Shown here in pieces: positions 34,365-55,864 of a stretch of 64,000 nucleotides of DNA; position 1 is the first letter of the stretch; each line of letters opens with the position of its first letter. Origin of the DNA: Bacteroidota bacterium (GTDB lineage: Bacteria > Bacteroidota > Bacteroidia > AKYH767-A > 2013-40CM-41-45); NCBI GenBank assembly GCA_016720655.1, contig JADKKE010000007.1, forward strand, positions 104,385-168,384, read 5' to 3'. A program made the translations under genes and the position numbers. The notes below the pieces were generated by a model, which saw nothing but the letters and a program-made list of their open reading frames with translations, did no database searches and was not told where the DNA came from.

Positions 34365-34534
34365 GTTCGTTTTTTAAATCAACCCGACCCCGTCAAAACA
34401 AGGAATTTACGATGCCAATGTTTTAAGTAATTCTTAAAATAAATGGGCCTAAATATCGTTATTTCAAAGGAATAGCACCTTTGGGTTGACTCCTATTGAT
34501 AAAAAAACTTACCTTAGAGCCTCATTTAAAATCC

Positions 34535-35578
34535 ATGGAATTTACAGCCAGGCAAATCAGTGATCTTCTTCATGGCAAAGTTGAAGGAAATGAAGATGTC
34601 AAAGTCGGCAGTTTGAGTAAGATTGAAGAAGGAACACCGGGATCCTTAAGCTTTTTGGCAAATCCCAAGTATTCATCCTTTATCTATTCAACCAAGGCTT
34701 CTGTCGTCATTGTGAATGCTGATTTTGTTCCCGAACAGGCGGTGAGTGCCACATTGGTACGTGTAGAAAATGCATACCAGGCTTTTGTTAAACTTTTGGA
34801 ATTGTACAATCAGATTCAGAGGGACAAAAAAGGAATCGAACAGCCAAGTTTCATTGCTACGAATGCACAAATGGGAGAGAATTGTTATGTTGGTGCTTTC
34901 GCTTACATCGGACAAAATGCAAAGATTGGTAATAATGTTAAGATTTATCCCCAAGCTTTTGTAGGTGACAATGTGAGTATTGGCGATAACACAACCTTAT
35001 TCGCAGGAGCAAAAGTTTATTCCGACTGTGTGATCGGAAAAGAATGTACACTTCATACAGGAACTGTCATTGGTGCTGATGGATTTGGGTTTACACCGAA
35101 CAGTGAGAATCAATACAACAAAGTCGCACAGATTGGAAATGTGGTGATTGAAGACTATGTTGAAATTGGAGCAAATACAGCCATCGACAGAGCAACATTG
35201 GGTTCTACAATCATTCGCAAAGGTGTGAAGCTTGACAACCTGATTCAGATTGCCCACAATGTTGAAATTGGGGAGAACACTGTAATTGCAGCACAAACAG
35301 GTGTTGCCGGATCAACGAAAATTGGAAAAGATTGCATGATCGGTGGACAGGTTGGAATTGTTGGTCACATCACAATCGCAGATAAAGTAAAAATTGCGGC
35401 GCAATCCGGAATTGGATCCAGCATCACTACTGAAGGTGAAATCGTACAAGGCTCACCTGCATTCAACATTGGAGATTACAAGAGAACCTATGTTGTTTTT
35501 CGCAAGCTTCCCGCTCTGGAAAAAAGGATCAAAGAACTCGAGCAAATGATTGCAGAGTTGAAACAGATTCCTTCCTGA
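34535..35578 (+). CDS. lpxD: UDP-3-O-acylglucosamine N-acyltransferase
   Basis: N-terminal LpxD domain ([20 protein letters not shown]) and left-handed beta-helix hexapeptide repeats. The ORF opens at TTG 34496; the first ATG is at 34535. Confidence 0.92.
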
Positions 35579-38534: not shown

Positions 38535-38741
38535 AATTTCAGAATTTAAAATGTTGAAGGAGAGGAATTCAAAAATGCACTTTAGCAAATTTAGGTTTTA
38601 AGCTGTATTTTCCAAATTCATTTTTCAATTAATTTCCTATTGCCTTGATTTGAGTCAAAGTGGAACTTTCAAAGGGTTAATGGAATAGTGTTTGGACCAT
38701 TTATTATTTTTTATTTGCATCCCCAATACCAAAATTTTACT

Positions 38742-38803: not shown

Positions 38804-41800
38804 ATGCTCAAAATGTACAAGACCTTCTCGTTAGGATTGCTCTTTATTCTCAATTTTTTGCAATCAAGTTCTGCCCAAAATTTCTGCATCCCAGACTATT
38901 CGAATTCGTCCGGAAATCCCCTGAGAATCGGAGAAGTCAATCTTGGTGATTTACGGGATACAGCGTTAACAGCGCATGATACAGCACAGTATCTGGATTA
39001 TTCCAGTGTCATCGCAGTGGATACGAACTTTTATCTGGTCACGACAGAGCTTATCCGGGGAAAAAATCAAACACTTAAAATTAATGCCAATTCAACCACT
39101 GCTGCTTTTTCCGCCTGGATTGATTATAATGAAAATGGTTCTTTTGAAGATGCGGATGAAAAGCTTGGAATCGAATATATGCCCGATACTTTTGGTCAGA
39201 TTCAGTTTCATATTCCCTCGTGGGTAATTCCGGGTACAAAGAGAATGCGAATTTCACTTGCACCTGTATCGGATTCATTAGGTCGGCGATTTGATTTTCT
39301 TCCGTGTACACCCATCGATCCAACTGTGGGGCAAACCATAGATTATTCAATTGAGATTCATGCAGATTATTGTTTTCCGTTCCTGACTTCAACATGTGAC
39401 CAGAATTTCATGATCGATGGATTTGAAATCAACAGAATGCAAAACCTGAACAATGGAAAGGATCTTGCCAACTGTCACAGTGACTTTACCACTGATCCGA
39501 CTTTGCTCGCTGAACTGGTGCGAGGGACTTACGACTCCATCAAAATTCATTTTAAAAATCTGGTCAACCCTGTGGCTTATTTTAATATGTGGGTGGATGG
39601 CGACGATGATGGTGAATATGAAAGTTATGAGACACCGATTAGTAATTTAAGCATTCCGGTTACTACTACTTTGGACACAACCCTGGTGTTTCCTGTTTTT
39701 CCTGTGCCCAATGAAACAGGATATAAGAGAATACGGATTCAGGTTTCGAATTCATCGATCACCAATGGTTTTGAGGATGAAGCCTGTAATCCATTTGCTT
39801 CCGGTGAGTATGAGGATTACCTGATTTATATTGGTAGTTCCGTTTGTGTGCCCACTAATTCCGCCGGAACTGTGAACGGGGCGTATATTAATTCTGTGAC
39901 AATGGATGCCACATCGATTACTTCGAATTCAGGTGGCACTGTACATTACCAGGATTATTATTATGCTCCGGCAACGTTCATTAATCTTCCTCCCGATAAG
40001 AATCACACGCTAACGATTCAATCTGTAAATGCAACTGGCAATTCTGTGTATTTGGGCGCATATGCGGATTTTAATAACGATGGTATATTCAATGTTGAAA
40101 GTCCATATGAAAATCTTGTTCTCAATTCCAACGGACTTGATTATTTAACGCATTCAACTGCATCTTCATTGGACGTTCTAACATTTCGTTCACCATCGAT
40201 TTTATCGGATGGGCCGGTTCATTTGCGGATAATTGTTGCTGACTCGACAGAAGAATTTTATTGTTCTCTAAATAACCCAATAAATATCGGAGAGATCGAG
40301 GATTATAAACTTATAATTTTAAATGATGATAGTCTGGCTCCAATCGCAGATCTGATTCCAAGACTCGGGCAGGGAACATATACCGGAGGAGCACATGAAT
40401 TTTGTCCGGGTGCCATCCAGTTCTTTGATGCGAGTTACCATCATCCGGATCAATGGCATTGGGAATTTCCAGGAGGGAGACCTTCTGTTTCAGATTTGCA
40501 GAATCCTGTTGTATTTTATGATAGTGCAGGTTATAAATCAGTTAAATTGAGAGTGACAAATTCTTTTGGTCTTGATTCAGTATCATTATCAAATTTAATT
40601 TATGTTAATTCGAATGGTATCCATTTCCGTGATGTCACCGGTAATTTATTGAATGACACAGTTGTTGTTTGCGGTACCAACAATTCATTTTATATCAACG
40701 CCGCCGACGATCCCTATTTTCAAACATATTTATGGAGTACATCATCAACAGATACAGCTGTCAATTTTACTGCTGTGCTTCCCGATACGAATTCAATTTA
40801 CCTGACTGTTCAAACGAGAACGGCTCCTTCCTGTACCTTAAAAGACACCCTTTTTCTTATTCAGAATTCTACACTTCAAGTGGACCTCAATGTGTCACCT
40901 ACTGCCAATGATATTTGTGCGTCGACTGCATTTATTGATACACTGAACTGTACAAATTCCAATGCTTTACTGGACACTTATCAATTTTCGACTCATTTTA
41001 ATTCAGATGCACCAACATTTCTCAACAATGCAGGTTCGAATCCATTGCAGTTGATCGATACCATTGACCTCAGTGCTCATGCCGGGGGAACAATTAGTTA
41101 TCTGGTCAGTTACAATGCGGTTTCCGGAAACGCAACAAACTTTGGTTGTGCTGTTGTTTCAGATTCGCTCACACTCGCCATTCATGCACAACCTACAGCT
41201 TCCCTTCACACTTTAGATTCATCTTTGTATTGTGTTGGAGCAACTTTAACAACAGTCGCAACTTCATCCGGTGGAACGGGTTCACCATCCTATCAATGGT
41301 CCGCAATTGGATCTGTACTAAATCAAAATCAGGATAGCCTGGTTTTGCAAGACATTTCTGTTGTGCCGGGTCCGATCGCAATCCAGTATATTTATTCTAC
41401 CAATGGTCCGGGTTGTATTTCCGATACTGCTGTATATACAGAGCAATTACTTTCGCGTCCTCTTGTGCAAGTATCAACCTCATCGGACTCAATTTGTAAT
41501 CAGGCCAATCTTTCAATTCTGGGAACCCTCAATCCTCTTTTTGGAAACGGAGAAGCCGGAACTTATGAATGGTCGTGGAGCTCTGATCAGGGAGCGAACT
41601 GGAATATTCTTGGTTCGGGAACAGATACATTTTTTGTTGGCCCCTTTTATATTCCGGGTTTGTCTGGAACGGATACTACTGTTCAGGTTCGTGTTCAGTT
41701 TACAGGAGCCCAACCGGAACTGGGATGTATGTCTGACCCAGCAAGCAGTAATGTGATTATTCAGGCAACTCCGGATGTCACAAATAGTTCCTTCACGGAG

Positions 41801-42910
41801 TCAATTTGTTCCGGATCAGGACTCTTAAGTCCGGTGTCACTTCAAGCGAATATTCCGGGTTCAACCTTCCAATGGAATTTCAGTTCCGGAAATCAGGTAC
41901 AGGTTACACCATCGAGTGGTAGCACTACACAAATTAATCCTGTTTTTACCAATACTAGCAATCAGCAAGACACCACCCGATTGTTTGTTACTGCTACCGG
42001 ACCGGGAAGCACGGCATGTCCCGGCATTACACGATCAATTGCCTTCCTTACCATTAATCCGGTTCCAGGGGCACCTGTTGTAAGTATTCTTGATTCTGCT
42101 GTTTGCAGTGATGCCCAAAATGTATTTATTTCCGTTGTTCCTCAGCCTGGAATTGTTTCGATCTGGGATAGTACTGAAACAACTTTGCATGAATTGAATG
42201 GAGTAGAATCCGGTGGTTTTGCTGTTTTCGATTTTAAACCAGTGAGTGCTTCGACAATTGATTCTGCCGGTGTACAATCGCAGTATGCGTTTGCACCGGA
42301 ATGTCCGAGTGCTACTACATTTGCGCATTTTACTATTTCTCCGGAACCTGCACCTCCCGGTGATATCAAAATACAATTTCAGAGTCTCGGAAATACCTTG
42401 GTATGTATGAGAAATGATGTAGACGGGTATCAATGGGGATATGATAGCCTTCCGGATTATCAACCACATCTTCAGTCAGGCCAGGTTTTTCAATCGTGTT
42501 CGTTTGGAAATTCATTTGACGTTACCCGGTTTTATTATTGGGTGATTGTTACTCAGGGAAATTGTGAAAGTAAATTTTATTATGGCGGTGATAATGGTGA
42601 ATTTTTGCCTCCGTATGTTAGAAACTCTGTTGTTCCACTTCCTGTAAAAGGTTTTCCATTACTGGAAGTGTTTCCTAATCCGAACAATGGGGAATTCACA
42701 GTTTCTCTGAAAAATTTTACTGGAACTTATGCGAATCTGCAAGTCTATGATGCCATCGGAAAATGTGTACGAAAGCAGGACATGGATTTAAACCAAAGCG
42801 ATGAATACCATCTAGTATTGAAGGATAATAATTTGCGGAAAGGAATTTATTGGTTGAGAGTAAATACTTCACAGGAAGAATCAGCTTTGGTGTCATTTAT
42901 TATCCAATAA
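38804..42910 (+). CDS. 1368-aa T9SS cargo protein with multiple GEVED domains, a PKD domain and Ig-like repeats
   Basis: Signal peptide, GEVED-like endings (GQTIDYSIEI, SGEYEDYLIYI, IGEIEDYKLII), a PKD motif (WHWEFPGGRPS...GYKSVKLRVTNSFG), and a T9SS CTD (LEVFPNPNNGEFTVSL...GIYWLRVNTSQEESALVSFIIQ). Confidence 0.85.
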   Translation: MLKMYKTFSLGLLFILNFLQSSSAQNFCIPDYSNSSGNPLRIGEVNLGDLRDTALTAHDTAQYLDYSSVIAVDTNFYLVTTELIRGKNQTLKINANSTTAAFSAWIDYNENGSFEDADEKLGIEYMPDTFGQIQFHIPSWVIPGTKRMRISLAPVSDSLGRRFDFLPCTPIDPTVGQTIDYSIEIHADYCFPFLTSTCDQNFMIDGFEINRMQNLNNGKDLANCHSDFTTDPTLLAELVRGTYDSIKIHFKNLVNPVAYFNMWVDGDDDGEYESYETPISNLSIPVTTTLDTTLVFPVFPVPNETGYKRIRIQVSNSSITNGFEDEACNPFASGEYEDYLIYIGSSVCVPTNSAGTVNGAYINSVTMDATSITSNSGGTVHYQDYYYAPATFINLPPDKNHTLTIQSVNATGNSVYLGAYADFNNDGIFNVESPYENLVLNSNGLDYLTHSTASSLDVLTFRSPSILSDGPVHLRIIVADSTEEFYCSLNNPINIGEIEDYKLIILNDDSLAPIADLIPRLGQGTYTGGAHEFCPGAIQFFDASYHHPDQWHWEFPGGRPSVSDLQNPVVFYDSAGYKSVKLRVTNSFGLDSVSLSNLIYVNSNGIHFRDVTGNLLNDTVVVCGTNNSFYINAADDPYFQTYLWSTSSTDTAVNFTAVLPDTNSIYLTVQTRTAPSCTLKDTLFLIQNSTLQVDLNVSPTANDICASTAFIDTLNCTNSNALLDTYQFSTHFNSDAPTFLNNAGSNPLQLIDTIDLSAHAGGTISYLVSYNAVSGNATNFGCAVVSDSLTLAIHAQPTASLHTLDSSLYCVGATLTTVATSSGGTGSPSYQWSAIGSVLNQNQDSLVLQDISVVPGPIAIQYIYSTNGPGCISDTAVYTEQLLSRPLVQVSTSSDSICNQANLSILGTLNPLFGNGEAGTYEWSWSSDQGANWNILGSGTDTFFVGPFYIPGLSGTDTTVQVRVQFTGAQPELGCMSDPASSNVIIQATPDVTNSSFTESICSGSGLLSPVSLQANIPGSTFQWNFSSGNQVQVTPSSGSTTQINPVFTNTSNQQDTTRLFVTATGPGSTACPGITRSIAFLTINPVPGAPVVSILDSAVCSDAQNVFISVVPQPGIVSIWDSTETTLHELNGVESGGFAVFDFKPVSASTIDSAGVQSQYAFAPECPSATTFAHFTISPEPAPPGDIKIQFQSLGNTLVCMRNDVDGYQWGYDSLPDYQPHLQSGQVFQSCSFGNSFDVTRFYYWVIVTQGNCESKFYYGGDNGEFLPPYVRNSVVPLPVKGFPLLEVFPNPNNGEFTVSLKNFTGTYANLQVYDAIGKCVRKQDMDLNQSDEYHLVLKDNNLRKGIYWLRVNTSQEESALVSFIIQ

Positions 42911-42921
42911 ACATTCAGGAC

Positions 42922-44580
42922 ATGAAACAACATTTGTATACAAGAATTTTCGCGCTTATTTTATTTCCTTTTTTCTGTGCTGGTCAAAATACCGGTTCAA
43001 AGAAAGCACTCATGAATAATCTGGATGATTTCCTGAGTGAATTTGCAAGTGTATCTTCTTTTCGTGAAATCGGTGGGACCGAGTTCTCGGAAACTCAGGC
43101 GACAAGGTTCAAAGAAATGTTTGTGGAAAATGCAATCATCTTTGATGACATCAATGCCTCTATTGTTGAAGATTTACTTGGCGGTAGTCCTTATCAACTG
43201 AAGAACAAACCACTCGACGAATACATCGCTGATGTCAGAAAAGGATTTCCTACAGGAATCCGTGTTGATATATTGAATTCGGCAATTGATTTTAGCAGAC
43301 TTGACAGCAATCTCATCAATATTGTCATCAATAAAAAAGTTAGCGGGAAATCATCAAGTCTCAACAGGTTTGAAAATAACGACACATTGCTTCTTGAAAT
43401 GATCGTCACCGCCGACAATCATTTTCAGATAAAGAAAATTAGTATGATCGGATCAAATTTTTCATGTGCAAATGATAAGGACAATGATGGAATTATCGAT
43501 GAACAGGATGCTTGTCCAGGCGTGAAAGGAGAAATGCGTTTCAAAGGATGTCCGGACCGCGACCGTGATGGTATTGCCGACAATGAAGATCAATGTCCGG
43601 ATGAATACGGTACATTTTTTAATAAGGGCTGTCCGCAGGAAGTGTTTACAAATAAATACGGAATCGATTTGTTTATAGGCTTTGTGTTGAATACGCCTGA
43701 GAATCTTATTCTGGAAAATTCGGCATTGGCATTTAACGAATTGGATGCTGAGAGAAGTACAATTGGTACCCTGACATATTCTTCAAAATCGGTTTCCAGC
43801 TTAATTAACGGATTGGAATTTTCCATGAGTTTGGATACGAACAAAACAATGGCGCTGGCTATTGGTGTGAACTATACTAAATTCAGCAGTGATTTAACCT
43901 GGGCTGGATTTCATGCAGAATACAAGGAGGTCGATAATAGCCTCGTTCAAACACCGTTCAGGAGAGTATTGACATTGAAGCAAACCAAAGAACATCTTGA
44001 ATCACAATATTTAACTGTTCCACTTCTTTTGAAATTCCGAAAAAGATTGAATGAAAAATTTGGAATCTATTATGAGTTAGGTCCTGCCTTCGATTTGATT
44101 AATTTGAATTCGGCAACAAGTTCTGTTGCTGATGAGGAAGCGATTTATGTATACAGCTCAATCTCCGGCGTGAAATGGACGTACTCGAAAAATTATTCGC
44201 CCTCCCCAACAGATTGGATAATCACCAGAGATATGGTAACTTCAAATTCAACAGGCGGAGCGAATGCATATTTTGCACTTTTACAGAATAATGGATTTGA
44301 TGTCGCCCTTGATAAACCATTGTCCGGTACTTCAGAGAAAATTTCGCGCATTGGTTTCAGTGGAATAGCCAGGGTTGGCGCTTTCTATATGGTTGACCGA
44401 TCCATAAGTATATTTGCAGGGATTGTTTATTCGTATCATTTTTCTTCCAAGAAACAAGATGGAAAGTATACGCCAATCGGAGAATCTCAGAATTATCAAT
44501 CTGTTATGAATGGAGTGAAAAAATACAATGGTCAGTCGATGGGAATGATGTTGGGAATAAAATATGGTTTTGGAAGATAA
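42922..44580 (+). CDS. P1: outer-membrane beta-barrel protein with N-terminal alpha+beta module and thrombospondin type-3 repeats
   Basis: Signal peptide MKQHLYTRIFALILFPFFCAGQ. TSP3 repeats DKDNDGIIDEQDACPG...DRDRDGIADNEDQCPDEYG. The roughly 320-aa C-terminal region has alternating strands and ends GIKYGFGR. The ATG is 11 nt after the upstream stop. Confidence 0.7.
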   Translation: MKQHLYTRIFALILFPFFCAGQNTGSKKALMNNLDDFLSEFASVSSFREIGGTEFSETQATRFKEMFVENAIIFDDINASIVEDLLGGSPYQLKNKPLDEYIADVRKGFPTGIRVDILNSAIDFSRLDSNLINIVINKKVSGKSSSLNRFENNDTLLLEMIVTADNHFQIKKISMIGSNFSCANDKDNDGIIDEQDACPGVKGEMRFKGCPDRDRDGIADNEDQCPDEYGTFFNKGCPQEVFTNKYGIDLFIGFVLNTPENLILENSALAFNELDAERSTIGTLTYSSKSVSSLINGLEFSMSLDTNKTMALAIGVNYTKFSSDLTWAGFHAEYKEVDNSLVQTPFRRVLTLKQTKEHLESQYLTVPLLLKFRKRLNEKFGIYYELGPAFDLINLNSATSSVADEEAIYVYSSISGVKWTYSKNYSPSPTDWIITRDMVTSNSTGGANAYFALLQNNGFDVALDKPLSGTSEKISRIGFSGIARVGAFYMVDRSISIFAGIVYSYHFSSKKQDGKYTPIGESQNYQSVMNGVKKYNGQSMGMMLGIKYGFGR

Positions 44581-44611
44581 TGTAGTCAGGTCAACTCTAA
44601 TAGAATAAAAA

Positions 44612-45541
44612 GTGGATAAAAGTGTACATGTAACATTTGCAATTACCTGCCTGTTGGCAATCGTACTTCTTGGACTGAAAATGAATGCGCCCGTCCCATG
44701 CGTTGAACCGGGAATTGTATTCACATCTGAATTTCCGAAGATCGGGGAGTCGGTTATATTTAAAGCGACAGGAACGGATAGCTCGGGAGTACTGTGGGAT
44801 TTTGGTGATGGGTCTGAGACTACAAAGGAATTCTGGCGACTCATAGTTATTCAAAACAGGGTAAATATACAGTGATGGCAAAGACAGCTACAGGTTGTCT
44901 GGCTGCGCGGAGTTGTATCAATTAGCCCGAAGGAACCGGAAACCAAATCCGTATTTCCGATTGTTAAATTGTCTTCAACTACCGTGTTTGTCGGTGATCG
45001 TGTATTGATTGAGGATCAAACCCCGGGAGCGAATTCTTGGTCATGGGATTTGGGAGAAAACGGACAAGTATCTGTTGAGCGTCGTGTATCGATGGCCTAT
45101 CTCACTCCGGGTAAAAAGGAAATAAGTCTTGCAATTAAAGGGGATGGAATTTCAGGAACATCGAGTTCAATTATAAATGTTCGGGAAAGACCGGAACCGG
45201 GAAAGAAACCGGTACCTTATACACCGCCAGCACCATCAGCCTTAAGTTACAAATACCATCCAATTTATTCGCCAAAATTTAAAGCCGCGGCAAATAGTAG
45301 AAACAGGGATGCAGCACTGCGACCTTTGGTACAAATGCTTTGCAATCAAAACGGAACGCATGTAAAATTGAATGTGGGTGTGCTGGATGAAAAGTCTTAT
45401 AATTTTTATGATTTCCGAACCAAGCTGAGCAATGACGAGCAAAGCAACTGGGTTGTTGACAGTGTCTTGATGCGATGGAGGAAATCAGATGGTGACGAAT
45501 GTATTGAAGATATTTATTTTATTATCAGTTCACATCGATAA
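44612..45541 (+). pseudogene. P2: membrane-anchored/secreted protein with two PKD domains and a C-terminal alpha+beta module; compensating -1/+1 indels
   Basis: WDFGDGSETT is in frame A. KGILATHSYSKQGKYTVMAKTATGCLAARSCIN is in the neighbouring frame, between about 44824 and about 44922. Frame A then resumes with SPKEPETKSVFPIVKLSSTTVFVGDRVLIEDQTPGANSWSWDLGENG, which is the second PKD domain. Confidence 0.7.
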
Positions 45542-45543
45542 GT

Positions 45544-46191
45544 ATGAAAAACCTGTACAAAATTTTTGGAATTTTATCAGCCTTGTTTTCAGTTCAGGCT
45601 GTTGCCCAAGAGGGTGCCCATGTGAAAAAATCATACACTACATATGATTTATTTTACATGGATAATAATCATGGGGCCAATGCAATTGGATTGAATGATT
45701 CACTGATTGAAAAGATGGCACAGGATGTTCGAAAATTATTAAAACAAGGAGAGGCAGGGTTTCTTCTTTTCCGTAGCAATGGAGATAGGGCACAGGTAAC
45801 GGAAAGAAAGGAAGATATTTTTACTTTTGAGTTCCGGGATGGAATTTTCGAGCAGAACACTGCGATCCCAAATTTTCTGGAAGATAAAAAGCGTCTCCGC
45901 GAAGAATTGTACGATTCCATCGGTGTCATCAGTGACAAATTAAACCTTCATTTTTATTTGTCAGAAAATGCCCTTCGAAGTTTACCCGAAGATCCGAATT
46001 CCATTCTCACGAATTTTGCCAGAGAATTTTCTGAATTATTTTCAGCAAAGAATGCTGAAGTGAATGTATACCTCTATTACAATCGTGATATCACTACATT
46101 GAATGAAAGTGCTCTGTCAAATTATCTGAATTTCTTTAATGGATCTACATATGCCGCAAGGAGAATTAATTTTACGATTATCAAAGGTTGA
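45544..46191 (+). CDS. P3: secreted hypothetical protein (215 aa)
   Basis: Signal peptide MKNLYKIFGILSALFSVQAVAQ. No recognisable family. The start is 2 nt after the P2 stop. Confidence 0.6.
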   Translation: MKNLYKIFGILSALFSVQAVAQEGAHVKKSYTTYDLFYMDNNHGANAIGLNDSLIEKMAQDVRKLLKQGEAGFLLFRSNGDRAQVTERKEDIFTFEFRDGIFEQNTAIPNFLEDKKRLREELYDSIGVISDKLNLHFYLSENALRSLPEDPNSILTNFAREFSELFSAKNAEVNVYLYYNRDITTLNESALSNYLNFFNGSTYAARRINFTIIKG

Positions 46192-46210
46192 GTTGAAAAG
46201 TAAAACTGTA

Positions 46211-48640
46211 GTGAATTTCCAATCTGTCAGTATTAACAGGAGGCCGGTTGCAACCCTTTTGCTATTGGGCATATTCTTTTGTCTGCCATTCATTTCACTC
46301 GCACAAGATCACGTGAAGGGGATGAAGGTAAAGCGAATGCCGAAAGATTATCTTGAACCAACAGGAAAGTTGGTTCCCGAAAATTCCAAGGCTTCCGAAG
46401 GGGAATATAGTTATTGGAGAGTGTATTCCGACAGAGACAATAATCAGACATTTAAAGATCCTTACTTGAAGACTCCATTCAAGACGATTCAGTTCATGGA
46501 TGCTTTTTTTGTCGTTCAGGAAAGGTGGAATGCCGTTCGTATTGCGAAATACGATGGGGCCCTTGGCGATAAATACACCATCCAACACGATTCATTGGAT
46601 TATGGATGGATTGAAAAGACACGCTTATTGTTGTGGAAGAAATGCCTGATCGATACTGTGAAGACAAATTTTAACCTGAAGGGTTTGGTTATCAGAAGTT
46701 ATAAGGTATTTGAGAATGCAGAAGAGCTGAAGCGACTTTCTCAGGAAAAATTTCCGCTCTATGCTTCTCCTGCATTAAAGTCCCGCACACAGAACGACAT
46801 CAATCTTTTTGATTTCTTGTTTATATATAAATACGAAAAGGGTGCCTACCTGATCGGTAAGCGGGAAGAGATCTCTGTGATGAGCGCTAAAACAGATGTC
46901 CTTGGCTGGGTACCGGAAGTTAATCTAAGGCCCTGGGGTCAACGCTTGTGTCTGGAACCGAATTCTAAACCGGATGCTGTAACAGAAAGAAAAACGGCAG
47001 GCTTGCGTGCAGGATTATTTGAATCAGAAGAAAAGGCAAAAAAATATCAGGCAGGAGATAAAATTAACCCGCTTCCGTATCAGGATCCATATGAAAAAGG
47101 TATGCAAATGTCTGAAAAGAGATTTCCTGTGATTGCGGATCAGAAAAACGGAATTCTGAAAACCGGCTTCATTACTTCGGTTCTTGATAAAACCGGAAAA
47201 GCAATTATCACAACAGATCAGCAAGCGGATATCGAAAAGAAATACAATCAGGCAAGAGAAGATTATCGGGTGATCAATATTGTATTTGTAATCGATGGCT
47301 CTGAGAAAGTTCAGCCCTATATGCAAAGTGTCATTAGTTCCATTCAGAATAGTATGAGTTTGCTAAAGATGGATACACGGAATAAATTTAATTTCGGGGC
47401 TGTTGTTTATCGCAATTACAATTGTCAGGATGATCAAATAGTATCACTTCAGGATCTCTCACCGAATATCAGTACGGTCACCGGTTTTTTACAAAAGCAA
47501 ACAACTACTGCCCAGCCATGTTCGAAAATGAAATCGGATGGAACTTCTTTGTATTACGGAATTTCCAAAGGAGTAAAATTGTTTCGGAAGAAAGAGCAGA
47601 ATAACATTATCATGGTTGTGGGTTGTGGTGGGAATTACCTGATCGACAAATATAATTTTGATGAAACAAATGTGAGTTCCGCTTTGGCTGACATGCAGTG
47701 CAGTCTTGTTTCGTTTCAGGTGAAATATTCAGGCGATGATGAGCAACGCTTTGTGAGTCAATCGAAAGAGTTGATCAAGCAATCGGCAAAAAAAATCCGG
47801 GATCGGTTGGATGATGTAAGACTTTCAAAGGCAGAAAGGCCAACAAGTATTAAGTTTGAAAGCACCGACAAGCGAATTCAAAACGAATATTCATTGGTTT
47901 TCCCGGGAGGGGATAGTCCGGTTCCGGGAAAATTAACTGCGGCTTCACCGAACAGACCCAATTCGCCATCGTACATTCAAGAGCAAATTGAAGAGATCAT
48001 TACAAACAGGAATGAAGACAATGAGAAAATTCTTGGGAAATGGGATGCGAAAGTAAAGGGGAGAGGAGCGACCACCGTGAAAATGGATGAAGAGTTGTAT
48101 TTGCTCCTTAAGAATTCAAAAATCGATCCTTCGGCATTTCAGAAACTTGATGTGAATACCAATTTCCAGATATTTGTCGAAGCATATGCATCAGTGAAAC
48201 AGAGTAAATTGAAAAAACCGCTTTTCAATTTCGTGCTGTTTATGGATGATGATGATTTGTACGAACTGATTATCCAATTCAGGAAACTTGGGAATGCAAC
48301 AACGGAACAGGAACTCAGAAAAAATCTGGTTGATTCGTATAAGCAATTGGCAATTTCTTATTATGGAGCTAGAGAATCCAAATCAGCAATCAACAAAAAG
48401 ACATTGTCTGAAATAATGGGACTAATCACGGGCCTGCCGTCAAGAAGTGATTTGTTTACAAAATACACTATTTCCGATTTGGAAAGTTCACGAGCAGTTA
48501 CGGTCCAAACATTGAAAGATATCGCCGGTGAAATCAACGATATCAAAACCGACCTTGAACGAATTCGATCACGCAAATCCTATTCATTTACCAGCTATGA
48601 TCAAATGTATTACTGGATCCCTGCTGAAGCGTTACACTAA
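46211..48640 (+). CDS. P4: about 810-aa secreted protein, SH3-like N-terminal region + vWA-like domain + helical C-terminal domain
   Basis: The in-frame GTG at 46211 gives MNFQSVSINRRPVATLLLLGIFFCLPFISLAQD (the ORF track opens at ATG 46139, inside P3). vWA-like INIVFVIDGSEKVQPYM...FGAVVYRNY...SDGTSLYYG...IIMVVGCGGN with a non-canonical MIDAS site. Confidence 0.65.
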   Translation: MNFQSVSINRRPVATLLLLGIFFCLPFISLAQDHVKGMKVKRMPKDYLEPTGKLVPENSKASEGEYSYWRVYSDRDNNQTFKDPYLKTPFKTIQFMDAFFVVQERWNAVRIAKYDGALGDKYTIQHDSLDYGWIEKTRLLLWKKCLIDTVKTNFNLKGLVIRSYKVFENAEELKRLSQEKFPLYASPALKSRTQNDINLFDFLFIYKYEKGAYLIGKREEISVMSAKTDVLGWVPEVNLRPWGQRLCLEPNSKPDAVTERKTAGLRAGLFESEEKAKKYQAGDKINPLPYQDPYEKGMQMSEKRFPVIADQKNGILKTGFITSVLDKTGKAIITTDQQADIEKKYNQAREDYRVINIVFVIDGSEKVQPYMQSVISSIQNSMSLLKMDTRNKFNFGAVVYRNYNCQDDQIVSLQDLSPNISTVTGFLQKQTTTAQPCSKMKSDGTSLYYGISKGVKLFRKKEQNNIIMVVGCGGNYLIDKYNFDETNVSSALADMQCSLVSFQVKYSGDDEQRFVSQSKELIKQSAKKIRDRLDDVRLSKAERPTSIKFESTDKRIQNEYSLVFPGGDSPVPGKLTAASPNRPNSPSYIQEQIEEIITNRNEDNEKILGKWDAKVKGRGATTVKMDEELYLLLKNSKIDPSAFQKLDVNTNFQIFVEAYASVKQSKLKKPLFNFVLFMDDDDLYELIIQFRKLGNATTEQELRKNLVDSYKQLAISYYGARESKSAINKKTLSEIMGLITGLPSRSDLFTKYTISDLESSRAVTVQTLKDIAGEINDIKTDLERIRSRKSYSFTSYDQMYYWIPAEALH

Positions 48641-48651
48641 GTGCCTGGTTC

Positions 48652-51130
48652 ATGGAGGAGAATTCTTTGGTTGATGAAAGTGTATTTTATATTTCTGATC
48701 TGTCGTGTTCCTACGACCGGACAGTTGAAAACCGGGTGCTTTACATCCGTGAATTCGGGATACCTCGTGGTAAGCTGACATTTTTATTGGGAGCATCCGG
48801 TTCAGGGAAAAGCACATTGCTGGAGACCCTGGGATTAATGAACAATACTTTTGCTGGAGGGGAAGCACATTTTGTTCCGGGCGCAAATGCTGAAAAATTT
48901 GCTTTGGATACTGTTTGGAATTCTGAAAATCAGGAAATTTTAAACAAGATTCGAAAACTTCACTATAGTTTTATTTTTCAGGAAAATAATCTGATGGATG
49001 ATTTTTCTGCTTTTGAAAAATATTTGTCTTTCTCAAATGGTGAAAGACAAACGTACATTTTCAGAAGTGGTTAAGCCTGCAGAATTAATTTTAAAACGAA
49101 TAGGATTAACCGCAAAGGAAGTGAACGAACACACAATGGCTACTAATCTATCTGGTGGTCAGCGTCAACGTTTGTCTTTTGTACGTGCGCTCAATGTAAA
49201 TTATTCGGTTTTGTTCTGCGATGAGCCGACGGGTAATCTCGATGAAGTGAATGCTCACGAGTTGATGGAGATTGTAAAAGGTTCCTGTTCTTTTACCCGC
49301 TCAGCAATTGTCGTTTCACATGACATTAACCTTGCAATAAAATATGCTGATCAGATTGCTGTCATCACCAAACCACCAGGAGAGAAGTATGGTGTAATCG
49401 ATTCGGGAAATATTTTTAACCGGAGTGAATGGGAGAATCAGTCGAGCGAAGACCGTGGTGTATTCCGTGAGAAATTGCGGGCTTTGTATTTTTCCAAAGA
49501 GAAACACCAGGAAGCCGAGGTGCAAACCAGGGCCGTTCCGCTTTCTGAAACAGGTTTTACAAAATTGTTTATCCGGAATGAATTGCGATCACTGTATGGA
49601 AAAAAGTATGTAAATTATTTTATCCTTTTATTTCTCACTGTTTTTTCATTGCTGGTTCTCGGATTTGCTAACGGCACGCTCAATTATATTGATCTTAAAT
49701 TGAAAGATGCTTTTGTGAACTGGGTGACAATTAAAATTCCCTGGGCGCAGTCGGGAGATCGTTTTCAGGAAATCAAGGAAAAACTGAATGAACCGGCAAA
49801 TGCCCAGCGATATCGGTATTCCTCAGCGACAAGTTATCCGGAGTTTTCCATGCCGATTTTCGATAAAAACTCTCATGATAAATACAGAGTTTTTTCTGAA
49901 AAGGGCCGGACTATTGAAAATGGTTCTCCACCAGATCCGATGCTCAAAGATATTTTGTCGGCAAGTAATCTGGTTCAAGGTTCTGTTTTTAGAAGTACTT
50001 CAGATTTTGGGCTGATCGTTTCCAGTCAGTTGCTTTCAAATTACCATTATTCGCTCAACGATCGATTCCTGTATGTTGGATTCAAAATTTTCGATGGACA
50101 TCAGGATGTTTATGAGCGGATTCCGGTTCCCATCAGAGCAGTTGTCCGATCCATTCCAGGAAAAAATTTATTTATTACAACGAATTATTTTAAAATGGCC
50201 TACGATCAGGCCGATGGAAACACTTTTGATCCACAGGTTCACCGGAACAAAATATGTTTGTATCTGGCCATTTCTGAACCCGAAATTCCTGCGATCACCA
50301 AAGACCTACGAAGCTCTGTTTCAGAAATGAAAGAGTTTTCAGAATGGAGCCCGGGTGTAGACATCGTTACAGATCAATCTGTCGATACAGGACAATCAAA
50401 AATCGCCGAAATTCGTTTTTCACCGGAACCGGAAGACACAATGGTAGCGGGAACATTCATCCGGAAACTTTTTTCTTTGCAATCCATGAAGAAATGGGAG
50501 GGAAGAGCAATACCCTATTATGACCTGTCACAATTCAATGAACAACTTCCGGAGTTGACGGATGATATTTTGTGCATTAATTTTAATGGCGATCTGGATA
50601 GTATCCGTTCCTTTAAACAATTTATTTTCAGTCTGAATAAACCGGAAGAAAAGGATGTAATTGAGTTGGATGATTCAGCGATCAGAGAAAAGGAGAATTA
50701 TAATTTCATGAGTAAAGTTACATTGATTATATCCTTTGGGCTTTTGTTTTTTGCTGTTTTTTGTATCGCTTTATTCATCATGAATGTACTCCGCTTGCAT
50801 TTGTTACAAGTGAAGATGAATCTTGGAACATTAAAGGCATTTGGATTGAATAACGCGGAGACAAATCAGTTGTACATAAAAATTATGCTTCTGTTTGTGA
50901 TCCTCGTCATGATCCCTGGTTTTACGATTGCTTATTTCATTGGTAAGTTGATTGACCGAATGATCGGATCATTCCTTGCGATGGATCAGAATTATACCTA
51001 CTTCCAGATTACAGATGGATTGATCCTGGGAATTATCCTGATCATCTTTTTGGTCTCAATGCTTGTAACCGGATTGGTTGCACGGAAGATACTCCTTAAA
51101 TCTCCGGGTGATCTGATCTATAACCGTTGA
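48652..51130 (+). pseudogene. P5: MacB-type fused ABC ATPase + FtsX-family permease; one +1 indel in an A5 run
   Basis: Walker A GASGSGKST, signature LSGGQRQR, Walker B LFCDEPTGNLD, H-loop VVSHD. Then TM1, a roughly 410-aa extracytoplasmic domain, and three TMs with GTLKAFG. ORFs 48652..49074 and 48998..51130 join at gaAAAAAt 49016-49020 (...DDFSAFE | NICLSQMVKDK...). Confidence 0.8.
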
Positions 51131-51168: not shown

Positions 51169-53946
51169 TCAATGCAGGTACTGATTACAAATTGCGATAA
51201 AGTCTGAGTTTTTGGAAAGCGATGAGAGGAGGGGGTCGTTTTTAATAGCTTTTTTCGAAAATGAACCGGTGGCAAATGCTTCTTTAAAGCTATCCATTGC
51301 TTCACTATTTTTGTTTTGCATGGAAAGTGCAATCCCTTTGTACAGCAAGCCTTCAGAGTTTCTTGAATCGGTTTGTAAAATCTGACTGATGCAATCCATG
51401 GCACGAATAGGATCGTTTAGCTTCAGGTAGGAATACGCCATCTTCTTGTTGAGAACCGGTTCGGAAACATAAGACTTGTCAATTTTTTTAGCGCTCTTGA
51501 AATCTTCTATCGCCATTGGGTAATTCGCTTTTTGCACCAGGCACAAGCCACGCAAACGAAAGGCCTCCGGATCCATGCTATTCTTCTGGAGATATTTGTT
51601 CAGGTCAGTAAGTGCTGGGTCATAATCTTCCATTCGGATCAGGCATTGGGCTTTGTGAAATAATGCTTCTGATAATTCCGGATTGTGACCAAGAGCATGA
51701 TTGTAATCTTTGATCGCCTGTTTGTATTCGTTCAAATCAAAATAGACATTTCCTCTGCCAACATTGAAATCCGGATCGTCTTCGTCACGATCCAATGCTT
51801 TGGCATAAAAATCCAGAGCTTGCTGGGGTTGATGGAGCTGTGAATAGGCGTTCCCGATGTAATAATATATTCGTGCAGAATCTTTTTTCAAAGTTAGTGC
51901 CTCGTTAAAATAACTGATTGATTTTGCATATTCCTTTTCTTTAAAATAAGTATGTCCCAGATAAATTTTAGCCGGATAAAAGTTCTGTCGAATGTCCAGT
52001 GATTTCAGAAATGAGAATTTCGCACTATCAAGTTGCTCGTTTTCGAAATATGCAATTCCGAGGAGATAATGATTTTGAAAATCGGTATTTTCCAAATTGC
52101 AGGCGGTCCTGTAATCGGCAATGGCTTTCCGAAGGTCTCCCAATTTAGTATACGCATTGCCCCGGGCAACGAAATAATCTGGCTTGCTGTCGTATAACTG
52201 TATGGCGGAATTCAGAGAGACGAGTGAATTCTGAGGGTTACTGATGCCCTTCACACCTGTATAAAATTCGTCAGCTTTTTGCTGGATTTTATTTTTTAAA
52301 TCTGCATTTAATCCCTGAGAAATTGCTAACCTGAAATAATTTCCAGCTCGCTGATAACGATCGGATTTGGATTCTTTCATCGCAATTAATCCAAGATAAT
52401 AATTCGCTTCCGGATAAATTTTTCTTTTTTCTATTGCACGCGTGAAATTTTTGGCGGCGATTTCATTTTCGTTCGATAAAAATTCTACCTCACCCAATTC
52501 AAAGTAGGTAACCGGATTGTCGACATTTACCTGGAGAGCAGATTCGTAATCACGGATTGCTTTATCGTATGCTCCAATTTCTTTTTGTGCTCTTGCACTC
52601 GATAGAAAATAGTAGTCGTTTTTTGGATCCTTTGATTTGAGGATCGCGTAATCACTCAGTGCACCGGCACGATCTTCATTTTTCATTTTGGTTTGGGCTC
52701 TCAATTCGTAAGCATCCAGGTAATTTTCATCCATGGATGTCGCTTTTGAAAGATCTTCCAATGCCCGCTTAGGATTGTTAGAAGCTACGTAAGCCTTAGC
52801 TCTCCAGAAATACAGTTCAGGGGTCACTTTGTTGTCAGTTTGAATATCTTTCGAACAGCTGTTAATGATTTGATCGAACTGATTTCTACTGAACAATCCC
52901 TGCAAGCCCTCTGTCTTGGAAAGAATGGGTTGGATTTGTTGCTTGCGAAGTTCAGTATTCGGATCTCTGTATTTTGCATCCAGCAAAGCCAATTTAGAAT
53001 ACAAACTGTCGGTAAAGTGATAGCGACGGAATTTGTAAGCATAATCAGCTTGTTCTTTCCATTTTCTTGAATTCTGTTCGATGCCTGTAACAGTCGAGAG
53101 TTTTTCCTGGTAGTCTTTCAGTTTTAACTGATAGGCAGTATTGGAAGGATCAAAACTGATAGCTCTGCGTATGAAACTAACAGCATCTTCATACAAACCT
53201 CTGCGTGCAGCCTGTTCGGCTTTGTCGGCCTGCTCTGAAGCTTTACCGCCTGCAGTAGAAATCGGATCCGGTGCGGCATCGCAATCGATCGCTCGGGCAA
53301 TATCGGTGACTTCATTCTTCGTATCATTCTGGAAAGCATCGGCATTTGCATAACTGATGGAATTGATTGTGACTGTCCATTCGTTTTTACCGCTACCTGA
53401 TTTGCCTGTCAATTCTACCCGCATTTCTGCAACTCTCGAAAATTTTGGATAGGTCATTCCGGTTGCAGTATGCTTTGCTTTGTATTCGCAATCGTAATAT
53501 ATATTTACATAGTAATAACTTGTCTTCTTGAGGTTAGAGCATCGGATATTTTTGAAGAAGATTGTATTTTCATCATCATCGTTTTTCTGGTAACCGGAAT
53601 ACAATTGATTCAGATACTTTTTTACATACAAATTTTCATTCCATTTATTTGAAATGATTAATTGTGGATCCACATCATTGGAGATAATAACGGAATCATT
53701 ATAAAATAAACGTGCCTGTCCTTTGGTTGCAGTGGTATACGACTCATCGAAATCTTGTTTGGTAGTACTTCCCCAGGTGATGAAATTCATTCGGTCTTGC
53801 AAGGCCATGATGCGATTCTCAGCACGGAACCGAATGTTCACGGTGTCTTTGCAGGTAATCAGTCCTTCTTGTGCTGTTGAAGAATAATGAAAAGAAAAAA
53901 AGAGGAACACTACAATAACAATAGTCTTATTCATCTTGTGGAACAT
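51169..53946 (-). CDS. P6: 925-aa secreted TPR-repeat protein with unique N-terminal alpha+beta module
   Basis: Signal peptide (MNKTIVIVVFLFFSFHYSSTAQ). A unique region of about 240 aa is followed by more than 15 TPR-like repeats (recurrent A..y..Al..dP.n..a....g pattern). The start overlaps the P7 stop. Confidence 0.75.
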   Translation of the reverse strand: MFHKMNKTIVIVVFLFFSFHYSSTAQEGLITCKDTVNIRFRAENRIMALQDRMNFITWGSTTKQDFDESYTTATKGQARLFYNDSVIISNDVDPQLIISNKWNENLYVKKYLNQLYSGYQKNDDDENTIFFKNIRCSNLKKTSYYYVNIYYDCEYKAKHTATGMTYPKFSRVAEMRVELTGKSGSGKNEWTVTINSISYANADAFQNDTKNEVTDIARAIDCDAAPDPISTAGGKASEQADKAEQAARRGLYEDAVSFIRRAISFDPSNTAYQLKLKDYQEKLSTVTGIEQNSRKWKEQADYAYKFRRYHFTDSLYSKLALLDAKYRDPNTELRKQQIQPILSKTEGLQGLFSRNQFDQIINSCSKDIQTDNKVTPELYFWRAKAYVASNNPKRALEDLSKATSMDENYLDAYELRAQTKMKNEDRAGALSDYAILKSKDPKNDYYFLSSARAQKEIGAYDKAIRDYESALQVNVDNPVTYFELGEVEFLSNENEIAAKNFTRAIEKRKIYPEANYYLGLIAMKESKSDRYQRAGNYFRLAISQGLNADLKNKIQQKADEFYTGVKGISNPQNSLVSLNSAIQLYDSKPDYFVARGNAYTKLGDLRKAIADYRTACNLENTDFQNHYLLGIAYFENEQLDSAKFSFLKSLDIRQNFYPAKIYLGHTYFKEKEYAKSISYFNEALTLKKDSARIYYYIGNAYSQLHQPQQALDFYAKALDRDEDDPDFNVGRGNVYFDLNEYKQAIKDYNHALGHNPELSEALFHKAQCLIRMEDYDPALTDLNKYLQKNSMDPEAFRLRGLCLVQKANYPMAIEDFKSAKKIDKSYVSEPVLNKKMAYSYLKLNDPIRAMDCISQILQTDSRNSEGLLYKGIALSMQNKNSEAMDSFKEAFATGSFSKKAIKNDPLLSSLSKNSDFIAICNQYLH

Positions 53947-54814
53947 TTAAAAATTGTTTTTTATAAATTGGCTTTGAACTGTATTTTACAAACAAGAGAT
54001 TGCTGATCAACCAACCGGAATTTCTGGTGTTGCGGTTGAAATTCTCGACAACCATTACATAGTTTGGAATCTGAAGAAAATGGTAGGAGATGTGCTGTAC
54101 AAAGTCAAAGCGAAGTGATTTTTCTTTCACTAATTTGATCAACAGTTGCATCTGATCGGTGAGGGGTCCTTCGTACAGGTAATCTTTGAATTTATCAGGT
54201 TCTTCAAACGCCTGGTACAAGTTAACGAAATTTGTACCATGACTCATGGGATCAAGAAAAACGCTGGTCTGGTTTTCCGGGTCTCGTAAATCGGAACCAC
54301 ACAAGCGGGGAACTGGGACTTTCGATCCGGATTTTGGATATTTAAAATTCAGAAAATCTGCCATCGCACTTACAACAACCCATTTCGTTGAATGATCTAT
54401 TCCTTCTTCGATTTTAAGTGTAAGATCCAATTGCTTTGATTTGCCCAAATACGTTACTCGACAACGAACATGCGCAAACCAGTCTTTGTCTTTAAAATTC
54501 AGAAAAATTGGTGCGCCTCGTTTGGTTACTGTCATAGTAAAATGCTTCAATGTTGACGTATCCCATCTCTGGTTTCGGTCAAACAAAGATTTTACCATTG
54601 TCGAACGTAGTGGCAGTTTACCACGGTTGTAATTCTTCAGATTTTGCACGAATACAGAACTCGTGTCTTTATTGAACCTGTCAATAAATTCATCGAGTAT
54701 TTTTACTTCCAGGGCATGGTTTTCTTTCCAGCGCGTGTCTTCAACGAGACCCTGTGACTGAACTGAAAATGAAAGCAGAAGAAAAGTGTAAAGAAGAAAT
54801 TGTTTTTTATTCAT
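53927..54814 (-). CDS. P7: secreted hypothetical protein (295 aa)
   Basis: Signal peptide MNKKQFLLYTFLLLSFSVQSQ. No recognisable family. The start is 3 nt after the P8 stop. Confidence 0.6.
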   Translation of the reverse strand: MNKKQFLLYTFLLLSFSVQSQGLVEDTRWKENHALEVKILDEFIDRFNKDTSSVFVQNLKNYNRGKLPLRSTMVKSLFDRNQRWDTSTLKHFTMTVTKRGAPIFLNFKDKDWFAHVRCRVTYLGKSKQLDLTLKIEEGIDHSTKWVVVSAMADFLNFKYPKSGSKVPVPRLCGSDLRDPENQTSVFLDPMSHGTNFVNLYQAFEEPDKFKDYLYEGPLTDQMQLLIKLVKEKSLRFDFVQHISYHFLQIPNYVMVVENFNRNTRNSGWLISNLLFVKYSSKPIYKKQFLNVPQDE

Positions 54815-54817
54815 TCA

Positions 54818-55864
54818 CTAATTGGGGCTGGTTTCCTGTACAAGAACATCAACTAAGAAAACATCCCAGTAGTCCTGAGGAATGCCATTCTCGAATTTCT
54901 GAATTTTTTTTACGACAACTTTAATGCTCTTCGTAGTAAGATCTTCATAAGCAGGTAAATCTTTGACATAGCCGATAAAGCGTTGTTTAAAAGAAACCCA
55001 GCCGTAGAAATTACCATCCGGACCTTTTTTCAAGTCTTTCACCATGTAATAGTCCGAAGTTTTAATTTCTACTTTTTCATATTGCAACATGCGCAATCGA
55101 TTCAGATATTTTCGAACCTTCAATGGTTTTTGAGCCTGAGGCTGACGAATTGAAGTAACTCCGATCGTTGAATTTTCATTGAGGAAAAGATCAAGTGCAT
55201 TTAAAATACTTGTTTGTGCAATATCTTCAAGTGTTGATTTGTCTGCAATAATTCCAATCAGCTGGCCAAATGTCCTTGACTTGATAAGCGCTTTGTCTTT
55301 CAATTCCGCCATTGTAGTCTCGTCCAGTGTTGTTGTTGAATTATCCACAGGCTTTACATAAACGTCTTCCTTTGGTTGTTCAACCGGAGCCGTCGATCCT
55401 CCGTCACTAACTCCTGAATTCGTGTTGTCAGCGGGAGGTGGAGCAGGACTTTCAGTAGTAACAGTGTTCTCGGAGATTGCAGGCTCAGGATTCGAGCTCA
55501 TTGATGATGCAGTATAATCCACTGAAATATCATAAGTCGCTTTAGTTGTGAATACATCATTTCCAAGAAAGGTTTTTAAATCCCTGAGCTTTTTATTTGG
55601 AAAGGACATCGTGAATTTATTCTCATTTCCAAACATTGCTCTTTCCAGATAATAACGCACGGAATCGTAATCCTGGATCTTCAGATCGTTGCAAACCCTT
55701 CGCAGACAGAAATAGTAATCATCGTTCGGATCCTGATTCACAAAATCATCCATTTCTTCAGTAGAACAGGTTGGGGCTTCCTGAGCTCGAGTGGGTGCAC
55801 CGGAGAAAATGAAAAAGAAGAGAAAGAAAAAGAAGGAGAGAGAGGAGATGTTCTTAAATTTCAT
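54818..55864 (-). CDS. P8: secreted hypothetical protein (348 aa) with Pro/Thr/Ser linker
   Basis: Signal peptide MKFKNISSLSFFFFLFFFIFSGAPTRAQ. A Cys-containing N-terminal domain, a low-complexity linker (NPEPAISENTVTTESPAPPPADNTNSG) and a C-terminal alpha+beta module. Confidence 0.6.
   Translation of the reverse strand: MKFKNISSLSFFFFLFFFIFSGAPTRAQEAPTCSTEEMDDFVNQDPNDDYYFCLRRVCNDLKIQDYDSVRYYLERAMFGNENKFTMSFPNKKLRDLKTFLGNDVFTTKATYDISVDYTASSMSSNPEPAISENTVTTESPAPPPADNTNSGVSDGGSTAPVEQPKEDVYVKPVDNSTTTLDETTMAELKDKALIKSRTFGQLIGIIADKSTLEDIAQTSILNALDLFLNENSTIGVTSIRQPQAQKPLKVRKYLNRLRMLQYEKVEIKTSDYYMVKDLKKGPDGNFYGWVSFKQRFIGYVKDLPAYEDLTTKSIKVVVKKIQKFENGIPQDYWDVFLVDVLVQETSPN

Follow-up and report, generated by a model that had tools for sequence, protein, structure and literature searches.

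The window analysed here, a 64,000-nucleotide stretch of a Bacteroidota bacterium contig (JADKKE010000007.1), holds at positions 38804-51130 of its + strand an operon of six genes, P0 to P5, two of which (P2 and P4) encode the TssP and TssR proteins of the class iii type VI secretion system (T6SS-iii). All coordinates are given in the numbering of the whole window. An earlier note on this DNA had described P1 to P5 as five co-oriented, tightly packed genes of the + strand, and the open reading frames (ORFs) of the window bear this out, with intergenic gaps of 31, 2, approximately 19 and 11 nt. While these five genes are real, the unit to which they belong is larger. P0, which encodes a protein with a type IX secretion system (T9SS) C-terminal domain (CTD), stops 11 nt before the start of P1, and an equivalent CTD-bearing gene precedes P1 in other loci too. 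The conserved unit is therefore six genes rather than five, and P0 is probably the first gene of the operon.

P4 (46211-48640, + strand, start codon approximate) comprises an N-terminal barrel, a middle domain, a vWA domain and a C-terminal helical domain, and matches all four Pfam TssR families above their gathering scores (TssR 6e-18, TssR_M 8.9e-12, TssR_VWA 6.1e-32, TssR_C 6.5e-15). TssR domains were found in 95 of 95 P4 homologues, and on this domain content P4 is a full four-domain TssR. P2 (44612-45541, + strand) encodes a protein of 309 residues when reconstructed across the frameshifts discussed below, with an N-terminal transmembrane (TM) helix, two PKD domains (PKD_4, 8.6e-14) and a C-terminal domain. 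Among the matches to its PKD domains are PKD entries from collagenases, one of them 2y72, the template that has been cited for TssP (PMC10781749). A hidden Markov model (HMM) built from 34 P2 orthologues was compared with the PKD proteins of approximately 300 residues encoded directly upstream of tssR in two canonical T6SS-iii loci (L109 and L110, order TssN-385aa-TssG-TssO-TssO-PKD-TssR), and aligned with them over positions 1-291 of its 294 (E 7e-52 and 3e-48). Because the architecture fits and the HMM aligns end to end with the canonical protein upstream of tssR, P2 is identified as a full-length TssP orthologue. In the window, it is separated from tssR by P3.

P3 (45544-46191, + strand) encodes a 215-residue protein with an N-terminal signal or anchor. 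It had been noted as an orphan and indeed gave no match in Pfam, NCBIfam or among PDB sequences; the family is small, with 57 representative clusters among 1.84 billion proteins. The AlphaFold2 (AF2) model of P3 (predicted local distance difference test (pLDDT) 89, predicted TM-score (pTM) 0.83) has a vWA-like alpha/beta fold, for which Foldseek returned Rpn10, TFIIH p44, integrin I and vWF A1 (E 5e-5 to 3e-3, TM-score approximately 0.45-0.57). The motif resembling a metal ion-dependent adhesion site is degenerate, reading YMDNN (family consensus Y[IV]DNS) rather than DxSxS, and a sequence relation to the vWA domain of TssR was undetectable (hhalign probability 2%). In the representative library, however, the P3 domain is fused C-terminally to two short TssR-like proteins of approximately 635 residues (P0373 and P0380), which have the N-terminal TssR barrel and no match to the TssR vWA model; P0373 also shows a sub-threshold TssR_C match. 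Since a P3-like domain ends these proteins, our results suggest that TssR has in P3 a vWA module that can be detached from it, and the fusion argues for an interaction in which P3 probably binds TssR. Identification of P3 as TssO or TssQ was rejected, as the published proteins are elongated and helical whereas the P3 model is a compact vWA-like alpha/beta fold. TssO is also ruled out by the separate TssO genes seen in other loci (L004 and L105-L108).

P5 (48652-51130, + strand) encodes an 825-residue MacB-type (type VII) ATP-binding cassette (ABC) protein, in which an N-terminal nucleotide-binding domain (NBD) is fused to an FtsX part (ABC_tran 9.8e-20, FtsX 2.3e-10). The first TM helix (residues 319-343) is followed by an extracytoplasmic region of approximately 345 residues (344-688), with TM2-4 lying in the FtsX part. 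The ATPase motifs, namely Walker A (GASGSGKST, 47-55), the signature (LSGGQRQR, 166-173), Walker B with its Glu (VLFCDEPT, 186-193) and the H-loop (SHD, 222-224), are intact in P5 and invariant in 66 homologues. Searched at full length, the AF2 model (pLDDT 84.9) has MacB structures as its top Foldseek matches in the PDB (5LIL, 5LJ6, 5LJ7, 5GKO and 5NIK; E 7e-27 to 3e-22), and P5 is thus a MacB-fold ATPase-permease. The protein ends in SPGDLIYNR, an instance of the motif (S/T)PGDLIYNR that is specific to the P5 family. Its last eight residues (PGDLIYNR, window 51104-51127) are invariant in the 66 homologues, which are 35-77% identical overall, and specific enough to pull the P5 family from 185,579 genomes. 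We considered PGDLIYNR as an exotic docking motif and set this aside, since it forms a short helix behind TM4 in the AF2 model, at what we take to be the position of the minor coupling helix of MacB.

P5 therefore resembles MacB and other type VII ABC proteins in its fused NBD, its four FtsX-type TM helices, its large periplasmic domain between TM1 and TM2 and its conserved helix after TM4. It differs from MacB in its C-terminal motif, in having TssR as its genomic partner and in the size of its periplasmic region, which in MacB is roughly 230 residues. Unlike MacAB-TolC, LolCDE and FtsEX, moreover, P5 loci have no MacA-type membrane-fusion protein (MFP), TolC, LolA/B or EnvC-type partner. No HlyD, MFP or OEP family member was found in the window operon or in the gene tables of the related loci, in agreement with the earlier note, which had remarked on the lack of a membrane-fusion protein gene.

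The NBD of P5 is nearest to those of LolD, FtsE and MacB-type proteins and scores best against the LolD model TIGR02211 (4e-33). Together with the finding that TssR is a lipoprotein in B. fragilis (PMC10781749), this raises the idea of a Lol-like exporter, in which P5 would release TssR, or some other lipoprotein belonging to the complex, from the inner membrane so that it can reach the outer membrane. The signal peptide of P4 looks, however, like a signal peptidase I (SPI) type (ending SLAQD), and the signal peptides of its P5-linked orthologues end in AQ and lack a conserved lipobox Cys. Lipoboxes are present in distant TssR proteins without a P5 neighbour (P0071, P0080, P0085 and P0089), and are absent from the N-termini of P1, P2 and P3. 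As no protein of the operon has a lipobox, and as the fold of P5 fits a fused MacB better than LolCDE, we regard a Lol-like role as very unlikely.

P1 (42922-44580, + strand) encodes 552 residues, with a signal peptide, an N-terminal domain, thrombospondin type-3 (TSP3) Ca-binding repeats and a predicted C-terminal barrel, judging from Pfam and an orthologue profile. The window copy itself falls below threshold (TSP_3 21 bits, OMP_b-brl_2 19.5 bits, cut-off 27 bits), while the orthologues match OMP_b-brl_2 in 15 of 29 cases (best E 1.8e-12) and TSP_3 in 8 of 29. The family profile also matches 5wtl, an OmpA-family TSP3 protein, in the PDB (6e-20). At the level of the family, P1 is thus predicted to be an outer-membrane barrel with TSP3 repeats. 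Given that TssR of this subfamily has an ordinary signal peptide without a lipobox, the P1 barrel probably supplies the outer-membrane anchor, a role that falls to lipidation in Bacteroides.

P0 (38804-42910, + strand; 1368 residues) has three GEVED domains (3.9e-30), PKD domains and the T9SS CTD (Por_Secre_tail, 3.3e-11). A CTD-bearing equivalent lies upstream of P1 in most related loci. Only the last approximately 290 residues of P0 (1082-1368), comprising an unannotated domain and the CTD, are conserved, in up to 25 loci, and the N-terminal parts vary, as they do in adhesins. The T9SS-sorted P0 would probably sit on the cell surface above the complex.

These assignments leave the domain calls of the earlier note largely intact for P1, P2, P3 and P5. 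The TSP3 repeats and outer-membrane barrel predicted for P1, the PKD domains of P2 and the NBD-FtsX fusion of P5 agree with those calls, although P2 is not a single ORF in the window and the P5 ORF is split by a frameshift; the extracytoplasmic domain of P5 had been put at about 410 residues, which is too long. The view that the genes could not be assigned to any named system does not hold, since P4 carries the four TssR domains, P2 is full-length TssP and the block adjoins T6SS genes in other genomes. P2 and P4 thus match a system that has already been described, whereas P1, P3 and P5 lie outside the published TssNQOPR complex (PMC10781749).

To place the operon in a wider context, one genome per species was scanned with an alignment of the C-terminal half of P5, which gave 79 loci whose ORFs were then clustered. 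Nearly all are labelled Bacteroidota and come from Chitinophagales (including Saprospiraceae), Flavobacteriales and metagenome-assembled genomes (MAGs) labelled 'Bacteroidia'. In 66 of 72 loci, the P5-type ABC gene is preceded by TssR at a distance of no more than two genes, and the common order is CTD-P1-P2-P3-TssR-ABC-ClpV-TssB-TssC-Hcp-VgrG-TssE-TssF. Three loci (L001-L003) share the entire neighbourhood of the window. The earlier note had proposed looking for co-localisation across Bacteroidota, and the order P1 to P5 does recur in dozens of distantly related loci, so that the arrangement is far beyond chance. At least two T6SS core families (from ClpV, TssB, TssC, Hcp, VgrG, TssE and TssF) are encoded within 10 kb in 21 of the 50 loci that have at least five downstream genes, usually directly downstream. 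In the cultured strain Flaviaesturariibacter amylovorans JCM 17919 the whole block is contiguous with ClpV-TssB-TssC-Hcp-VgrG-TssE-TssF. TssN (Pfam 2e-35) and TssO occur alongside P5 in seven loci (L015, L035, L040, L045, L054, L056 and L063), and in a further locus (L004) the block adjoins TssN and TssO and the ABC gene is absent. The co-occurrence of TssN and TssO with P5 indicates that P5 adds to the known complex rather than replacing part of it, and P5 as a substitute for TssN or TssO was rejected on the same ground.

The closest syntenic relatives of the window point to a system divided between two loci. Three MAGs (GCA_016714145.1, GCA_016720935.1 and GCA_016721635.1) carry a window-like operon on one contig, with a TssR 88% identical to that of the window, and encode a TssC protein (P0217) on another. 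Their second locus (L105-L108) has the order TssN-394aa-TssO-ClpV-TssB-TssC-Hcp-Hcp-PAAR-…-Hcp-VgrG-…-TssG, and neither tssP nor tssR is present in it. The genes of T6SS-iii are often scattered over several loci, with tssQOPR clustered and tssN accompanying tssK and tssG (PMC10781749). Because the core locus of the relatives lacks tssP and tssR, in keeping with this published scattering, the window operon would represent the tssP-tssR module of a T6SS-iii that is split, with this module detached from the rest, which for the window's own genome we infer from these relatives. Close to PAAR, Hcp and VgrG, the same core locus also encodes proteins with DNase_NucA_NucB and Pesticin domains, which are candidate effectors, and it contains a response regulator with a GerE domain.

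The T6SS-iii membrane complex, TssNQOPR, was defined in 2024 in B. fragilis as an essential assembly of five proteins (Bongiovanni et al., PMC10781749). The window module resembles it in the four TssR domains of P4 and in the architecture of P2, with its TM helix, two collagenase-like PKD domains and C-terminal domain. It is also alike in the clustering of tssP with tssR, the placing of tssN elsewhere with baseplate genes and the spread of the system over several loci. On the other hand, the window TssR has no lipoprotein signal, the P3 gene intervenes between tssP and tssR, tssO lies in another locus and tssQ was not identified. P0, P1 and P5 accompany the module, while the two canonical loci, L109 and L110, are without them and they go unmentioned in PMC10781749.

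Our preferred interpretation, which we hold with moderate confidence, is that P0 to P5 encode the half of a Bacteroidota T6SS-iii membrane complex that belongs to the periplasm and outer membrane, and that in this lineage they lie away from the genes for sheath, tube and baseplate. The trans-envelope machine envisaged by the earlier note stands in spirit, given a barrel, periplasmic PKD and vWA proteins and a MacB-fold ATPase, and it is only the claim of unassignability that falls. Type VII ABC proteins such as MacB, LolCDE and FtsEX act by mechanotransmission. By analogy, P5 would form an inner-membrane homodimer of the MacB type, in which ATP hydrolysis in the cytoplasm would be transmitted as movement of the enlarged periplasmic domain. 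This motion could then perform work on TssR, TssP or P3, either in assembling the periplasmic complex or in priming or gating it for firing.

Several points weigh against this interpretation. T6SS core genes are missing from the window itself, as judged by BLASTP of the proteins of four related loci (L004 and L006-L008) against all of its ORFs at E<1e-5, in which TssB, TssC, Hcp, VgrG, TssE, TssF, TssG, TssK, ClpV and TssN were sought. The T6SS link for this genome comes by way of MAGs whose TssR is 88% identical, and in 26 of the 50 P5 loci the nearest 10 kb contain no T6SS core gene. P5-type loci retain TssN and TssO, which leaves no evident vacancy in the known complex for P5. That P5, P1 and TssR touch one another is a proposal, and we infer both the direction in which P5 would work and whether its role would be structural or regulatory. 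Were the frameshifts in P2 and P5 real, the window copy would moreover be non-functional. Finally, the module takes a different form in Saprospiraceae and Portibacter (L060, L067, L068, L071-L073, L078 and L082), where the order is a CTD protein, a 204-residue protein, a P1 homologue, TssR and a split ABC, and where neither TssP, P3 nor any T6SS core gene is found within 10 kb. Here the NBD (approximately 275 residues) and the permease (approximately 507 residues) are encoded by separate genes, and the module is flanked by housekeeping genes, with RuvX, Def, TatD, ExbB/D and LptD-like genes following it. The P1 homologue of this form (family 11) is related to P1 with an hhalign probability of 99.2%, and the two families downstream of the split ABC (13 and 14) are unrelated to P3, TssO or TssP.

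The persistence of this trio of P1-like protein, TssR and ABC protein apart from T6SS genes invites the reading that P1, TssR (as periplasmic adaptor) and P5 form an autonomous tripartite machine for export or assembly, similar to MacAB-TolC, with P0 or some other surface molecule as its cargo. Proximity to T6SS genes would then reflect a later co-option, or the machine would be the ancestral source of TssR. The loci that lack a nearby core gene and the CTD-bearing protein encoded upstream in most loci are in keeping with this. Nevertheless, the operon is the only source seen in this lineage for tssP and tssR, both of which are essential in B. fragilis, and a survey of 1253 complete genomes found no full membrane-complex set where all other T6SS genes were missing (PMC10781749). 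The module is also contiguous with ClpV-TssBC-Hcp in 21 loci, and we consider an autonomous machine distinctly improbable overall, though possible for the Saprospiraceae form. A broader proposal, which we put forward tentatively and regard as unlikely, is that P1, TssR and P5 constitute an independent trans-envelope module powered by ATP, an energised part of T6SS-iii in some Bacteroidota, perhaps T6SS-free in Saprospiraceae and perhaps the ancestral source of the T6SS-iii membrane complex. Bongiovanni et al. looked for such an ancestral system and did not find one (PMC10781749).

The closest functional precedent for an ABC protein in a T6SS comes from the TagQRST system of the P. aeruginosa H1-T6SS, composed of the ATPase TagT, the permease TagS, the outer-membrane lipoprotein TagQ and TagR. 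Both cases feature an ABC protein of the Lol/MacB superfamily within a T6SS cluster, with outer-membrane and periplasmic partners and a role accessory to the core complex; P5 is likened to TagS and TagT here by description rather than by sequence. The two differ in T6SS class (i versus iii) and in phylum, P5 is one fused polypeptide in most loci, no PpkA, Fha or PppA gene lies near P5, and TssR, P1 and P3 are unrelated to TagQ or TagR. This precedent raises the alternative that P5 belongs to a sensor or regulator, which would detect envelope contact or damage through inputs from P1, P0 and TssR and trigger T6SS assembly locally. TagS (a COG4591 permease) and TagT (a COG1136 ATPase) act in target recognition (PMC13584744, PMC7817224), the NBD of P5 is closest to NBDs of the LolD, FtsE and MacB type, P5 is additional to TssN and TssO, and a surface T9SS protein with an outer-membrane barrel would be plausible contact sensors. 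Against this, the gene tables of the neighbourhoods examined contain no PpkA-type kinase, FHA, PppA/PP2C or TagR-like family, a downstream signalling route is not identifiable, and the tie between P5 and tssR (66 of 72 loci) is suggestive of a partner in fixed stoichiometry, not of a regulator acting upstream. We therefore treat a sensory role as a possible but unlikely alternative to P5 being a working part of the membrane complex.

The integrity of the genes in the window also had to be considered, as two of them are interrupted. The P2 frame that opens at 44612 halts at a TGA at 44873-44875, while the first PKD domain runs on in another frame from approximately 44824 (ATHSYSKQGKYTVMAKTATGCLAA) and the original frame is regained at approximately 44909. 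P5 is present as two ORFs (48652-49074 and 48998-51130), caused by an extra A in GAAAAAT at approximately 49016. Indels and substitutions were scored against L009, a Logan contig that shares 98.9% identity with the window. Relative to it, the differences at these sites are single-base indels, in that the window lacks a T at 44824 and carries one additional G at 44909 and one additional A at 49016; intergenic homopolymer lengths differ too. P2 (306-309 residues) and P5 (819-825 residues) are intact in four short-read contigs of approximately 99% identity and in the three MAGs with 88% TssR identity, and all other relatives likewise have both genes intact. The codons that differ from L009 are predominantly synonymous (synonymous/non-synonymous: P1 17/2, P2 18/5, P3 10/0, P4 16/2, P5 19/2), and all five genes are under purifying selection.

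Neighbouring genes are broken in the same manner. On the - strand, a gene for an adhesin with SprB-repeat, PKD_6 and T9SS-CTD domains (35606-36985 and 36753-38588) is interrupted by one additional C at 36778 when compared with L009, and is one ORF in relatives, whose locus sequences each end within it. On the + strand, the overlapping ORFs at 31930-32895 and 32730-34364, which carry CarboxypepD_reg and Plug, and OMP_b-brl_3 and a TonB-dependent barrel, respectively, are halves of one frameshifted TonB-dependent-receptor-like gene, and provide further evidence of an indel-prone assembly. Because relatives are intact, substitutions are biased towards synonymous changes and neighbouring genes are also split, the most likely source of the frameshifts in P2 and P5 is consensus error in the assembly.

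The alternative is that the locus is decaying, in which case the frameshifts are real and the T6SS membrane-complex module has been inactivated in this strain, presumably very recently. Three indels across two of five genes, one of them (44824) outside a homopolymer, would fit such a loss, and defective T6SS loci are known in Bacteroidota (PMC10781749). Yet the codons flanking the indels continue, in the shifted frames, to encode convincing PKD and ABC sequence, the synonymous bias in P2 and P5 is strong and the four short-read contigs, which come independently from closely similar strains, are intact. Indels that also split an unrelated receptor and adhesin, together with varying homopolymer lengths, are typical of consensus errors, and we judge decay improbable. 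A programmed frameshift in P5 was rejected, as every relative has one continuous frame and the extra base lies within an A-run.

While T6SS-iii itself is known, a variant that combines a non-lipoprotein TssR with a barrel, a small vWA protein, a MacB-type ATPase and a T9SS surface protein appears to be undescribed in the literature searched. None of the papers returned by full-text searches connects T6SS-iii to an ABC, FtsX or MacB protein, the T6SS literature searched contained no ATP-driven membrane-complex component, and a search combining Saprospiraceae with type VI secretion gave nothing useful. The Bacteroidota entries in a 2026 review of T6SS accessory genes are only TagA, TagB and TagC. 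The variant is recurrent, with approximately 80 related loci from species-representative genomes. Its TssR, predicted not to be lipid-anchored, is mostly accompanied by both an outer-membrane barrel and an ATPase-permease of the MacB fold, and the small vWA protein and T9SS-sorted surface protein are often present too. If P5 does work on the complex, the T6SS would have in it an envelope component driven by ATP, and Pseudomonas TagTS a counterpart in Bacteroidota. Those versions of the module that have no T6SS genes nearby also bear on the origin of the membrane complex, and the cultured carrier F. amylovorans JCM 17919 makes direct testing possible.

Downstream of the operon, three genes on the - strand converge on it (51169-55864). 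These encode a 925-residue tetratricopeptide repeat (TPR) protein (51169-53946), assigned by its matches to TPR families, and two proteins of 295 and 348 residues without a family match. TPR-like accessory genes, TagA and TagB, are known in Bacteroides T6SS loci. The three genes are conserved only in close relatives (L009, L013, L014 and L090), where the TPR gene (family 29) lies beside the operon. In one further locus (L008), a TPR protein of weak similarity is encoded upstream of the module; whether the TPR gene of the window belongs to the module is uncertain. On the flanks of the operon are genes of lipid A biosynthesis, LpxD (34496-35578, + strand) on one side and a fused LpxC/FabZ (56252-57739, + strand) on the other, with an LpxA-like acyltransferase following LpxC/FabZ in the syntenic relatives. 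The operon thus sits in a housekeeping neighbourhood of envelope biogenesis.

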